Part shown: piece after piece, positions 18,850 to 23,413 of the stretch
Layout of the letters: every line of letters begins with the position of its first letter
How positions within the stretch are numbered: position 1 is the stretch's first letter
Assembly: GCA_902775195.1 (NCBI GenBank)
Contig: CACYLQ010000001.1
Span: forward strand, 21,253-85,252
DNA from: an uncultured Pseudobutyrivibrio sp.
GTDB lineage: Bacteria; Bacillota; Clostridia; Lachnospirales; Lachnospiraceae
Direction of reading: 5' to 3'
DNA: 64,000 bases
Made by a program: the position numbers and the translations under genes
The notes under the pieces: generated by a model
Seen by the model: only the letters and a program-made list of their open reading frames with translations
Databases searched by the model: none
Told to the model about the DNA's origin: nothing

Positions 18850-20487
18850 ATGAACAAGATTTTTGTTAATCAGGTTGGGTTTTTACCTAATTCTGAAAAG
18901 AAGGCTGTGCTTAATTTTAATGCAGCAGATTTTCAAGTAATTGATGCAAATGGAGAATCAGTGCTTAAAGGGGAAGCTACTCACTTTGGCACTGATGAAA
19001 TCTCTGGTGAGGATACCTATATCGCTGATTTTAGTCAGATTAAAAATCAGGGTATGTACAAAATCCTTGCAGGAGATGTTTCCAGTGCATCTTTTTTTGT
19101 TGGAGAAAATGCATTTGATAAGCTTATGAAGGCTGTTTGCAAATGCTTTTATTATCTTCGTTGCGGTCATGGCTTGGACAAGAAGTACGCAGGAAAGTAT
19201 TATCATGAGCCTTGCCATGTTTCAAAGGCAACAGTTTACGGTGAGGATGTGCCTCCTGTAGATGTGTGCGGCGGCTGGCATGATGCTGGTGACTATGGCA
19301 GATATTCTACTGCAGGAGCTGTAGCTGTAGCACATTTATTATATGCTGTAAGATTCTTTCCAAAGCTTCTCGATGTGGAATTTGATATTCCAAAGGATGC
19401 TTGTGAGAAAGGGCTTTTGCCTGATATTTTGGCTGAAGTAAAAGTGGAATTGGATTTTCTTATGAAAATGCAAAGAGAGGATGGAAGTGTATGGCACAAG
19501 GTTACAACCTTTAGTCACGCTCCATTTATTATGCCTGAGGATGACAAAGAGGAATTGTTTTTGTTTAATGTATCATCTCTTGCAACAGCGGATATTGCCG
19601 CAGTATTTGCTTTGGCTAATACCGTATATTCAGCTTATGATAAGGAATATGCTAAATTGCTTCTTGAAAGGTCTTTGAAGGCTTATAAATGGCTTGAGGC
19701 TAATAGTGATGCAGTATTATTTAAAAATGCCGAAGGTTCAAATACAGGAGAGTATCCTGAGAATGAAGATAATTCTAATAGATTCTGGGCTGCTGCAGCT
19801 TTGTTTGAAGCGACAGGAGAAAAGAATTATTACCAGGATGCCCTAAAGCAGAAGCAGTTTATTGAAGCATACGATAAGGGGGATGCATTTAAGGAATACA
19901 CAGGAAATATATTTACTTGCTTTGGCTGGGCAGATGTTGCCGGACTTGGTGCACTTTCATTAATCTTAAAGGATGAAGAAAGTGAGCTTTATGAATTTGT
20001 AAAGCAAGCACTAATTGAGGAAGCTAACAGATTAGTAAGAAATGCATCAGAAAATGGCTTTGGCCTTTGCATGAAAAAGGAGAACTTCATCTGGGGTAGC
20101 AACATGGAACTACTTAAGTATCTGATGGTACTTACTGTAGCAAACAAGCTGGAGCCTAAGGCTGAATTCGTAAATACGTTAACAGCAGGACTTAATTATC
20201 TGCTGGGCTGCAATTCAATGGATGTAAGCTATGTTACAGGAAATGGTGAAAAGGCATTTAAAAATCCTCATCTTCGTCCAACCTTTGCAGCTAAATTAGA
20301 TGCATGGCCAGGCCTTGTTTCGGGTGGTCCAAACACAGGCTTACAGGATGAAAGAGCGCAGGAACTTCCAAAGGATACAGCACCAATGAAATGCTATATA
20401 GATCATGTGGATTGCTATTCATTAAATGAAATTACAATCTATTGGAATTCACCACTTGTATTTGTTTTAGCAGGTCTATTGAAGTAG
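18850..20487 (+). CDS. Glycoside hydrolase family 9 (Ig-like N-terminal domain; cellodextrinase/endoglucanase, no signal peptide)
   Basis: VNQVGF, GGWHDAGDYG, WGSN, PHLR, GGPN, YSLNEITIYWNSPL. Confidence 0.9.
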   Translation: MNKIFVNQVGFLPNSEKKAVLNFNAADFQVIDANGESVLKGEATHFGTDEISGEDTYIADFSQIKNQGMYKILAGDVSSASFFVGENAFDKLMKAVCKCFYYLRCGHGLDKKYAGKYYHEPCHVSKATVYGEDVPPVDVCGGWHDAGDYGRYSTAGAVAVAHLLYAVRFFPKLLDVEFDIPKDACEKGLLPDILAEVKVELDFLMKMQREDGSVWHKVTTFSHAPFIMPEDDKEELFLFNVSSLATADIAAVFALANTVYSAYDKEYAKLLLERSLKAYKWLEANSDAVLFKNAEGSNTGEYPENEDNSNRFWAAAALFEATGEKNYYQDALKQKQFIEAYDKGDAFKEYTGNIFTCFGWADVAGLGALSLILKDEESELYEFVKQALIEEANRLVRNASENGFGLCMKKENFIWGSNMELLKYLMVLTVANKLEPKAEFVNTLTAGLNYLLGCNSMDVSYVTGNGEKAFKNPHLRPTFAAKLDAWPGLVSGGPNTGLQDERAQELPKDTAPMKCYIDHVDCYSLNEITIYWNSPLVFVLAGLLK

Positions 20488-20640: not shown

Positions 20641-20682
20641 ATACGAGTCGCTTGAAGCGGTACACAAATCGCGAAAAGCTCT

Positions 20683-20755
20683 GGGATCTTAGCTCAGCTG
20701 GGAGAGCATCTGCCTTACAAGCAGGGGGTCACAGGTTCGAGCCCTGTAGGTCCCA
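20683..20755 (+). tRNA. tRNA-Val (TAC)
   Basis: GGGATCT/AGGTCCC acceptor stem, D arm AGCTCAGCTGGGAGAGC, anticodon loop CT-TAC-AA, T loop GGTTCGAGCCC; CCA not encoded. Confidence 0.96.
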
Positions 20756-20782
20756 TTTTAAAACTGAATATTTTCGACATAT

Positions 20783-20856
20783 GGCGAGATAGCTCAGTTG
20801 GCTAGAGCACGCGGTTCATACCCGCGGTGTCGAGGGTTCGAATCCCCCTCTCGCTA
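20783..20856 (+). tRNA. tRNA-Met (CAT), elongator type
   Basis: GGCGAGA/TCTCGCT acceptor stem, anticodon arm CGCGG-TT-CAT-AC-CCGCG, T loop GGTTCGAATCC. Lacks the initiator C1:A72 mismatch. Confidence 0.93.
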
Positions 20857-20858
20857 CG

Positions 20859-20898
20859 AAAAAAATAAGCTAGACCAAACGGTCTAGCTTATTTTTTT
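20859..20898. terminator. Bidirectional intrinsic terminator after the tRNAs
   Basis: AAAAAAATAAGCTAGACC-AAAC-GGTCTAGCTTATTTTTTT perfect stem with A and T tails. Confidence 0.88.
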
Positions 20899-20910
20899 AT
20901 AGCAATATGT

Positions 20911-21036
20911 GGATTCAACTCAATCAAACCGCGGGGTTCCCGCGATGTCGAGGGGCGAGCGTGGTCCAGTGGACCACACGGTTGCGAGCCGACCGAGCCG
21001 GCAGGCGAGAGTCGAATCCCCCTTAGTTGGGGATTC
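20911..21036. mobile_element. GC-rich palindromic miniature element containing an interrupted copy of the tRNA-Met 3' half
   Basis: CCCGCGATGTCGAGGG (20939-54) and TCGAATCCCCCT (21012-23) match tRNA-Met CCCGCGGTGTCGAGGG-T-TCGAATCCCCCT. Internal hairpin GTGGTCCAGTGGACCAC; imperfect IR GGATTCAACT / AGTCGAATCC. Confidence 0.55.
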
Positions 21037-21234
21037 TGTCATAAGAGTAACGTGAAATGTGGGTTTGTGAGGAATCTTGTGACAGAAAAAGCCATGTTGA
21101 GCCAAAATCCTGTCACAAGGGCAACGAAAAAAGTGGGTTTGCAGGAGATGCTGTGACAGAAAAAGCCATGTTGAACCAAAATAATGTCACAAGGCCAACG
21201 GAAAATGTTTGTTTGCAAGCAGCTTTGTGACAGA
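21034..21234. repeat. Tandem array A: 3 units of a 74-bp repeat
   Basis: TGTCA(C/T) at 21037, 21111 and 21185 (74-bp period); core TGTCAC-A..AACG.AAA.GTGGGTTTG-N10-TGTGACAGA. Confidence 0.9.
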
Positions 21235-21283
21235 TAGATATGGTTAAGTGTAAATATGTGTTGGAAGTTTTTTATGTCAGTTA

Positions 21284-22063
21284 TCACAGCTGGCTATTTT
21301 TGATTCCCAGCATGCTAAGAGCAAGCTCGGCATCAGAAAATGAGAAAGGATTATTTCTTGATTCGAAAGTAAGTATAAGGTTCTCACCAGGGATAATGTG
21401 GTTGGCCTGGTATGTCTGAAGTTTTGAAAATGCTTTCCTGGCATAATCATTATTGTCCATCATTCCTAAATGCTCCCAATAAATAATATCGCCTGTGACT
21501 GGATGCTTTAATGTGAAATCAGGGTAGAACTTGATTCCATTCAAAATGAGTTCGCATTCATATCTGTAAGGAATAGCATTGCTTGAAAGTGCCATATCAA
21601 TAAAAACTTCTGATTTTGAGCGCACTAAATTACCTGAAGGACATTGAAAGGTCAATTGCTCAGGGTTCTTAGGATTTGAATTATATGATGATTGCCAATT
21701 AATTAAATCATCAGTGGGAATCTTGTTAAAGTAGGGTTTTAACAGATAGTCATATCCTTTGTCTTGCAATAATTCTTGAAGTTCAGAACGTGCAGCTTCA
21801 AAAGCTTTAGTGGAATCATTGTTGATAACATCAATCTGGGCAAGGATTAATGCTTTCTTAAGTTCAAGATATTTTTTCCTAGCAAGCTTTGTTGCAAAAG
21901 AATAATCTTTTTTGGAAATATATTGTCTAGTGGTGTTATTTAAATAAAACCATCTATGCCATTTTCCATTTGGATATACTAATAGATTACCTTTGGGGAG
22001 AGATAAAATCTCCTTTTCGATTTTATCTAATTCTTGATATAAATTTTTTAGATTATAATTCAT
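21284..22063 (-). CDS. Hypothetical protein with C-terminal PD-(D/E)XK / restriction-endonuclease-like domain
   Basis: 259-aa AT-rich ORF. C-terminal motifs VRSKSE, IPYRYE, YPDFTL, IIYWEHLGM fit a PD...E-x-x nuclease-type active site. N-terminal half is helical and basic. Confidence 0.72.
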   Translation of the reverse strand: MNYNLKNLYQELDKIEKEILSLPKGNLLVYPNGKWHRWFYLNNTTRQYISKKDYSFATKLARKKYLELKKALILAQIDVINNDSTKAFEAARSELQELLQDKGYDYLLKPYFNKIPTDDLINWQSSYNSNPKNPEQLTFQCPSGNLVRSKSEVFIDMALSSNAIPYRYECELILNGIKFYPDFTLKHPVTGDIIYWEHLGMMDNNDYARKAFSKLQTYQANHIIPGENLILTFESRNNPFSFSDAELALSMLGIKNSQL

Positions 22064-22109
22064 TAAATTTTTTTGTATGAAATAAAAAACGACGAAACCA
22101 GCAAATTAA

Positions 22110-22138
22110 AAAATATCATAGTAATGAATAATAGTCAA
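22110..22138 (-). promoter_or_regulatory. Candidate sigma-A promoter for the nuclease-like gene
   Basis: Minus strand TTGACT-N17-TATTTT with extended -10 TG, about 45 nt upstream of the ATG at 22063. Confidence 0.4.
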
Positions 22139-22229
22139 GAAAAAAGTTATATATAGATACGTGGATGAAATGCACATTAAATATATAACAATGCGAGAGG
22201 AGGAGATTCCATATTACAGTAGGTTATTT

Positions 22230-22610
22230 CAGAATCAATGAAATCCTGTCACAGGTGTAACGGAAAATGTGGGTTTGTAAGAAAGTTTGTGACAGAAACA
22301 AGCCAGAATCAGTGATATTCTGTCACAGGTGTAACGGAAAATGTGGGTTTGTGAGAAAGTTTGTGACAGAAATCAGGCGGAATCAATGAAATCCTGTCAC
22401 AGAGATAACGAAAAATGTGGGTTTGTGAAGAGGTTTGTGACAGAAAACAGCCAGAATCAGTGAAATTCTGTCACAGGTGTAACGGAAAATGTGGGTTTGT
22501 GAAGAGGTTTGTGACAGAAACAAGCCAGAATCAGTGAAATTCTGTCACAAGGGTAATGGAAAATGTGGGTTTGTGGGGATACTTGTGACAGAAACCCACC
22601 AGAAACAATG
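22230..22610. repeat. Tandem array B: 5 units (plus a partial) of the same 74-bp repeat family
   Basis: TGTCAC at 22247, 22321, 22395, 22469, 22543 (exact 74-bp period). Consensus CAGAATCARTGAAATYCTGTCACAGGTGTAACGGAAAATGTGGGTTTGT-N9-TGTGACAGAA-N6. Confidence 0.95.
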
Positions 22611-22660
22611 GCAGCATTTGGCACTGTGATACTATTGTGATGGCAATGGAGGAGAAAAAC

Positions 22661-23413
22661 ATGTATCAAAAAGGTTTAAAAGTGTTTAGAACATTATCTG
22701 CATTATCTCTTAGTGCAATCATTATCCTGTTGTCGGTTCCTATGGAATCAAATGCTGAAGAAACAGTTGTTTATTCTGCAGATGCATCAGATTTCGTGTT
22801 GTTAAGTGATGCTGTACCTGATGCAATTTTAGAAATCCGTTATTATTCTACTTATAATTTTATAGGAGATAGAATAGATGGCTATGAGGAGCCAGTGGCG
22901 CTACTTACAAAAGAAGCTGCTACAGCTTTAAAGGCAGCCAGTGATGAATTTGTAGCAAAGGGCTATAGATTAAAGATTTATGATGCCTATAGACCTCAGA
23001 TGGCAGTAACAAATTTTGTAGACTGGGCGCAGAATCCTAAGGATACGAGAATGAAACAGTATTTTTATCCAGAGCTTCAGAAGAATGTATTGTTCCCACA
23101 GGGATATATTGCTGAACATTCTGGCCATAGCCGTGGAAGCACTGTAGATCTTACTTTATTTGACATGCGAACAGAAAAGGAAGTTGATATGGGTGGAACC
23201 TTCGATTATTTTGGAGAGCTTAGTCATCCTGATTACACTGGTATCACTAAAGAACAGTATGCAAACCGTATGCTTTTAAGAGATGTTATGCTACGTCATG
23301 GCTTTAATCCATTAGCAGAAGAGTGGTGGCATTTTACTCTTGCGGATGAGCCATATACTAATACATACTTCACATTTCCTGTTAGCAAATCTTCTGTAAA
23401 AGAAAAATTATAA
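22661..23413 (+). CDS. ddpX: D-alanyl-D-alanine dipeptidase (peptidase M15D, VanX/DdpX-like) with N-terminal signal peptide
   Basis: IYDAYRP, SGHSRGSTVD, DMGGTFD, EEWWHF. RBS GGAGG before ATG 22661. Confidence 0.88.
   Translation: MYQKGLKVFRTLSALSLSAIIILLSVPMESNAEETVVYSADASDFVLLSDAVPDAILEIRYYSTYNFIGDRIDGYEEPVALLTKEAATALKAASDEFVAKGYRLKIYDAYRPQMAVTNFVDWAQNPKDTRMKQYFYPELQKNVLFPQGYIAEHSGHSRGSTVDLTLFDMRTEKEVDMGGTFDYFGELSHPDYTGITKEQYANRMLLRDVMLRHGFNPLAEEWWHFTLADEPYTNTYFTFPVSKSSVKEKL

Follow-up and report, generated by a model that had tools for sequence, protein, structure and literature searches.

A nuclease-like gene of an uncultured Pseudobutyrivibrio sp., together with the palindromic tandem arrays beside it, would on balance be best explained as a selfish system of the RAYT/REPIN kind, in which an unrelated nuclease cuts at its own arrays and drives recombination; this view is derived from sequence comparison. 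It is likely that the array is bound, cut, and spread by the protein, in which case the system would constitute an undescribed class of selfish DNA. The window analyzed, i.e., the whole stretch of 64,000 nucleotides to whose numbering plain positions refer, is one example of a family and not a unique locus. This family lives in ruminant-gut bacteria, with up to about eleven related nuclease-like genes per genome.

The gene, designated P0001, is located on the minus strand (21284..22063) and encodes 259 amino acids with the motifs RSKSE, YE, PDF, and WEHLG, exactly as had been read from the sequence in the original prediction. It is flanked by array A (21034..21234; three units of TGTCA(C/T)A-N34-TGTGACA) and array B (22230..22610; five units in the same orientation), both of them non-coding and without assigned strand. 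The number of units, the 74-bp period, and the shared orientation, likewise predicted, were confirmed by Tandem Repeats Finder (TRF; array A, period 74, 2.5 copies, 21036-21217, score 234; array B, period 74, 5.1 copies, 22230-22604, score 533) and by the arm positions. Absent from the prediction is the composition of the unit, TGTCACA-N34-TGTGACA-N26, which is an inverted pair of 7-bp arms plus a 26-nt linker. The arms start at 21037 (TGTCATA), 21078, 21111, 21152, 21185, and 21226 in array A and from 22247 to 22584 in array B; with unit spacings of 74, 1136, 74, 74, and 74, both arrays belong to one repeat family. A degenerate arm, TATCACA (21282..21288, no strand), overlaps the stop codon of P0001. 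The junction between the last unit of array A and P0001 is the same in contigs of three further gut metagenomes from three studies, and the stretch recurs mostly in bovine, goat, or unspecified gut metagenome runs; a 222-bp skip within array B in runs X4 and X10 may be an assembly repeat collapse.

Upstream of the cassette are found a GH9 cellulase-family gene (18850-20487), tRNA-Val (20682-20756), and tRNA-Met (20783-20857), the latter being followed by a terminator-like 18-bp perfect inverted repeat with A/T tracts (20859..20898), which had been noted before and is not cassette-specific. On the other side lies a D-Ala-D-Ala dipeptidase (Peptidase_M15) gene (22637-23413); a further array, C200, is likewise found upstream of a putative lipoprotein peptidase gene. 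The interrupted 3' copy of tRNA-Met described beside the cassette is present (~20921..21025, plus strand), with a GC-rich insert of ~55 nt in the T-arm. It is a separate tRNA-linked repeat: the insert occurs also at G000:C14:1989-2046 (G000 being the window's genome) and after the same tRNA in several relatives devoid of the cassette, so that the suggested link to the tRNA is not supported. Integration at the tRNA site was rejected, an integrase ORF being absent nearby and the interrupted copy existing without the cassette. Neither is the G018 allele an empty tRNA site, since a deletion there begins in the tRNA pseudo-copy and runs on into the dipeptidase gene. The candidate promoter of P0001 (22110..22138, minus strand) does match 9 of 12 positions, but it is not above chance, because shuffled sequence would be expected to give 8.2 sites of this quality, and nine were counted.

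The AlphaFold model of P0001 is confident (pLDDT 94) and predicts the order helix, three-stranded beta-sheet (amino acids 26-49; 21917..21988, minus strand), long helices, and alpha/beta domain. For the C-terminal domain (amino acids 118-259; 21287..21712, minus strand), a restriction-endonuclease-like PD-(D/E)XK fold of the TnsA/Vsr type is predicted, in line with the fold anticipated earlier. Modeled alone (pLDDT 94.5), this domain finds its best structural match in TnsA (Z 8.3, rmsd 3.3, 115 aligned residues), followed by Bax1 (Z 8.1), I-Bth0305I (Z 7.9), VRR-NUC, and Vsr; the Z values are middling, with the majority of the top 25 matches being nucleases of the same fold. Foldseek gave a best E value of 1.1e-3 for the domain, none below 0.001, and no match at E<=0.001 for the full model. 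At the sequence level, a weak RSxxE-YE-PDF match to T7 endonuclease I (E 0.48) was seen, and no family of Pfam, NCBIfam, or PHROGs scored above cut-off. Named relatives were found in Pseudobutyrivibrio, Butyrivibrio, and Eubacterium; the Atlas neighbors of the protein are unnamed, the nearest named cluster having DUF6788 on 14% of its members. While the predicted fold is that of TnsA of Tn7, I-Bth0305I, and T7 endonuclease I, P0001 differs from all three by its N-terminal domain of coiled coil and beta-sheet and by the missing canonical lysine; it has, unlike TnsA, no adjoining TnsB/TnsC partner and, unlike the Vsr-like homing endonuclease I-Bth0305I, does not reside in an intron.

In an alignment of 45 sequences reaching down to ~25% identity, E152, D182, E197, and H198 are invariant. 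The canonical PD-(D/E)XK motif carries a lysine two residues after the second acidic residue; in the alignment, the position two residues after E197 is leucine or phenylalanine, and K214 is at least 90% conserved. Presumably, H198 or K214 would need to replace the canonical lysine. A rough count gave a dN/dS of ~0.15 against two orthologues. The N-terminal domain, which may resemble an AP2/Tn916-type fold, contains the predicted sheet between long helices as the candidate arm-reading module. Columns 30, 32, 33, 35, and 37 of this sheet are among the best separators of the arm groups, being 75-83% identical in same-arm pairs versus 29-56% in different-arm pairs at matched overall identity; as specificity determinants they are only a lead, because the same data had served to select them.

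The genome of the window contains 11 paralogues according to an HMM search. Ten of them are located beside an array, no two of these arrays having the same palindromic core; the array lies within a few hundred bases for nine and beyond an inserted IS110-like gene for the tenth, while the eleventh has scattered degenerate arms only. An IS110-like gene separates the L037 paralogue from its TATACGC array (G000:C6:31000-33267), and an IS interrupts the TGTCACA array in G036:C11 (L206). At six further G000 sites the TGTCACA array occurs without the gene. In G000, 48 palindromic tandem arrays were picked up by a general detector; 44 of these are outside ORFs of at least 150 amino acids, and the periods cluster at 52/53 and 72-75. 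For the TACTA(C/T)C arrays (34 units at seven G000 sites, in contigs C6, C18, C38, C49, C89, C188, and C211), no cognate paralogue was found in the assembly, which is 87% complete. Three array families within 2 kb were observed at G000:C159:3086-5316 and at C120:8659-11088, an arrangement kept in G010 and G036; the C159 cluster surrounds a small two-gene pair. A 74-bp array was seen in none of the 89 viral loci that contain the arm pair.

Of the 34 genus genomes, 32 possess the family (31 of 33 besides G000), as do 18 of 201 genomes of a class-wide draw. The 129 loci examined comprise a subset of the 194 matches in the genus together with loci from the class level; 117 of them were kept after removal of two duplicates and ten partial or fused proteins. 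The linkage of repeat and nuclease, proposed earlier as a check, is evident: at least two units within 600 bp were found at 83/117 homologue loci versus 36/1551 control genes, and at least three units at 66/117 versus 25/1551, where the controls are G000 genes only and the orthologues within the 117 loci are not independent. The array lies upstream in 64 of these loci, downstream in 26, and on both sides in just seven; at 34 no array was detected. The sandwich, originally taken as the defining anatomy, is thus not typical of the family. Arm type and period follow the protein clades in a quick IQ-TREE tree, as would be expected from the predicted covariation; many clades share or stay at one locus.

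Across genomes, arm types go along with cognate genes. TGTCACA reaches at least nine units in exactly five of the 34 genomes, those with the gene of this clade (G000, G010, G032, G034, and G036; the G034 gene is 50% identical to P0001 and was assigned to the clade by tree and adjacent array), while a single unit was found in G004 and none in the remaining 28 genus genomes. The GGTATAAC pattern is seen in exactly seven genomes, the same seven that possess its single-copy gene (91-96% identical). For TACCACT, 14 of the 34 genomes have both, two the pattern only, one the gene only, and 17 neither; G035 contains 11 units without gene. TATCGCA has 4-20 units in five genomes with an adjacent gene and 1-3 units in four further ones, in which no adjacent gene was found. 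One species split does not explain this pattern, because the genome sets differ between families; the 34 genomes are related, and the Fisher p-values of the arm-gene match are overstated by kinship. The repeat population, it appears from these counts, depends on the cognate gene, with exceptions. The original prediction had regarded genome-wide scattering independent of the gene as speaking against a joint system; the repeat is indeed scattered, but not independently, and since the scattering needs the cognate gene in the genome, it supports the link.

Concerning the nature of the arrays, 20 of the 22 distinct unit spacings up to 110 are within 2 bp of a multiple of 10.5 bp, as opposed to 27 of 71 integers, and the phase score peaks at 10.5 bp. 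In 108 distinct TGTCACA units, the bases beside the arms pair no better than shuffles, and no complementarity above chance was found beyond the 7-8-bp arms; only one of 18 symmetric position pairs clearly beats shuffles, and it is not beside the arms. The helical spacing and the non-covarying stems point to binding sites on duplex DNA instead of RNA.

Insight into the dynamics comes from a comparison of alleles. At the locus of P0001, array A and the gene are separated in the close relatives G010 and G036 by 1.9 and 2.9 kb, respectively, of cargo that differs between the two, and homology of the gene end to these genomes stops a few bases from the degenerate arm, where the cargo starts; G032 has a solo array. 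Because of the cargo in relatives, the tight sandwich is likely derived, i.e., it would have arisen by deletion of cargo between array A and the gene. The former placement of array A in the 3' untranslated region of the gene would hold for the window, but as a derived state. At the uppP-hypF site, G032 shows array-gene-array, while the solo array of G000 (C83) is the same minus 1422 bp, with the junction inside the 8-bp arm CTGTCACA; the direction of the change is not provable. In G032, 4.6 kb of cargo lie between the copies of a 306-bp array duplication, and cargo includes HEPN-like and Fic genes. At least four contexts contain the cassette of the sister family GGTATAAC, with identities of 90-97%. 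Three of 12 gene-less copies of this family retain the last 65-70 nt of the gene, which in one of the three is connected to the upstream end; five of the 12 share a leader of ~110 nt with a sharp boundary. TGTCACA solo arrays have no gene remnants and no shared leaders. The neighboring ORFs of the GGTATAAC elements (L303-L315 and the gene-bearing loci) are nearly all on the opposite strand, and the shared leader contains an outward-facing TG-TATAAT-like site just 5' of the start of the next gene; a strand bias or a role as cassette promoter is possible. No target duplication was found at four filled/empty sites, where the alleles show replacement or deletion, and no consistent one in five leader-type GGTATAAC copies. 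Since the element ends are variable and target duplications were not found, no transposition chemistry is seen.

From these data a scenario may be drawn in which the selfish-element and the binding-site options of the original prediction, both of which are supported, probably combine. Within arrays that are in phase with the DNA helix, the predicted PD-(D/E)XK nuclease would likely recognize the 7-bp arm that belongs to it. The N-terminal beta-sheet may read the arm, and several protomers would assemble along the same face of the helix. Where the DNA is nicked or broken close to an arm, host recombination would carry out the repair, which would lead to gain or loss of units, to loss or capture of the gene and of cargo between arrays, and, in trans, to array copies at new intergenic sites. 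Rather more tentatively, and somewhat short of an even chance, this would amount to a new class of selfish DNA composed of diversifying PD-(D/E)XK nucleases, in which a small beta-sheet retargets each enzyme to a 7-bp arm of its own; up to ~11 orthogonal pairs would coexist in a genome, with phased arrays as recombination platforms that copy arrays and capture, excise, or shuffle cargo without transposase or integrase.

An unlikely alternative, albeit the one that survives best, is that of domesticated, non-cutting DNA-binding proteins acting as regulators or chromosome organizers, in which case host recombination would spread the arrays and these would persist wherever the binder is present. 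Binding agrees with the phasing and with the lack of covariation in the arms, array B lies at an operator-like, near-fixed distance from the gene (164-182 bp upstream in five of six loci of the P0001 clade), many clades are syntenic, and the canonical lysine is absent; the acidic active-site residues, however, are invariant in all aligned paralogues, the presence of the family is patchy, near-identical cassettes have spread recently, solo copies derive from the gene, and the crossover lies inside an arm. Somewhat less probable again is a defense or addiction nuclease that is restrained by its arrays through DNA titration or autorepression and released by phage or array loss. The nuclease domain matches the C-termini of the PADLOC candidates PDC-S68 (52/52 members, best E 8e-31), HEAT_CxxC_PDDEXK (48/52), and PDC-S69 (47/52), the same domain ends SF1 helicase proteins, and HEPN-like and Fic genes are among the cargo. 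Yet the PADLOC match is limited to the shared domain of proteins of ~1200 amino acids, this scheme would not lead one to expect arrays at many housekeeping spacers or solo copies derived from the gene, and G018 is without the gene at this site but has arm remnants elsewhere. In the open reading frames L148 and L150 (1239-1279 amino acids), the RSKSE nuclease domain forms the C-terminus of an SF1 helicase, without arrays.

A passive association, in which self-propagating arrays mark insertion hot spots with nuclease genes as frequent passengers, is quite improbable. It would account for the solo state of the majority of arrays, for the 34 loci without detected array, and for two Fic genes also bearing a two-unit palindromic array, but not for the fact that arm types correspond one to one to protein clades and to genome content, nor for the candidate specificity residues of the beta-sheet (chosen post hoc) tracking arm type at matched identity. 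The Fic genes concerned, L038 (G000:C41:1680-2734) and L039 (G000:C239:642-1693), have the TTAGGGAA/TTCCCTA array, with a period of 56, directly upstream, possibly as an autoregulatory operator or as a parallel system; the Fic N-terminus aligned with the nuclease family at 2% probability, and a shared array-binding domain is unproven. Transcription of the arrays and processing to ~74-nt RNAs serving as antitoxin or guide, an option of the original prediction after the model of type III toxin-antitoxin or CRISPR systems, can hardly be maintained: array B units do fold as hairpins (z -1.9 to -3.7), which any inverted arms permit, and one low-depth RNA-library contig, which could be DNA, covers 20977-21163, but against it stand the lack of stem covariation, the helical phasing, the folding of the array A unit on the plus strand no better than shuffles (z 0.49), inner segments that are identical between units in 33-47 of 48 nt and therefore are not spacers, the position of arrays on either side of the gene or kilobases away, and the absence of Rfam matches in the arrays, CRISPR included, of ToxN/CptN/TenpN-family matches in Pfam, NCBIfam, and PADLOC, and of any terminator-like site on the gene's own strand in the interval from array B to the gene. 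The RNA data as a whole are uninformative here; that run X20 had no contig covering the gene carries no weight.

Several known systems use related modules. In type III toxin-antitoxin systems (ToxIN, CptIN, TenpIN), tandem non-coding repeats adjoin an endoribonuclease gene in an operon of upstream array, terminator, and toxin. Tandem non-coding repeats also adjoin the nuclease-like gene in the present family, but with a DNase-type fold, DNA-helix phasing, neither Rfam nor Pfam match, and no fixed operon of that order; from CRISPR it is set apart by inner segments that are shared instead of unique spacers. Solo-LTR scars result from the collapse of repeat-element-repeat to a solo repeat; repeat-gene-repeat would collapse here to a solo array in a comparable manner, albeit by crossover in just 8 bp of identity. 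Precise ends with target-site duplication, as in IS, MITE, or Tn7-like elements, are not found. With PDC-S68, a homologous C-terminal nuclease domain is shared, while PDC-S68 models have ~1200 amino acids and the two helicase-fused homologues lack arrays.

The closest parallel is RAYT-REPIN. According to two sources, an enzyme gene is flanked there by its own palindromic repeat, of which dispersed extragenic, non-autonomous copies exist, several cognate pairs occur per genome, and repeats are scarce or decayed without the gene (bioRxiv 10.1101/2021.07.10.451892; PMC3337134). Measured against this account, the present family likewise has an enzyme gene flanked by its cognate repeat, dispersed extragenic copies (44/48 arrays, as above), and an array population that depends on the cognate gene in genomes that are not independent of each other. 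It would differ in the predicted PD-(D/E)XK enzyme, RAYT being an HUH/tyrosine (IS200-like) transposase; no Y1_Tnp-type Pfam match was found in 45 family members. The REPIN doublet is a long single-stranded DNA hairpin that includes the spacer; the units of the present family, in contrast, are tandemly ordered 7-bp arms spaced by multiples of 10.5 bp, with neither hairpin covariation nor extended pairing. The up to 11 paralogues per genome, and cassettes that also move between genomes and carry cargo, are further differences. MITEs, as defined in the first of these sources (bioRxiv 10.1101/2021.07.10.451892), offer a parallel to the GGTATAAC gene-less copies derived by internal deletion, but terminal inverted repeats, target duplication, and a DDE transposase were not found here. 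Full-text literature searches, in a collection with few subscription papers, listed no published description of the nuclease-array family.

Provided that the nuclease mobilizes the arrays, the family would be a second, independently evolved answer to the question raised by REP/RAYT, namely by what means short palindromic repeats spread and persist; the bacteria concerned, Clostridia of the gut and rumen, are a major group. The panel of protein-arm pairs makes cognate recognition testable by swaps, and such pairs could yield small orthogonal site-specific nucleases or recombination tools. If true, the proposed mechanism would also account for the turnover of cargo at intergenic hot spots in these bacteria.
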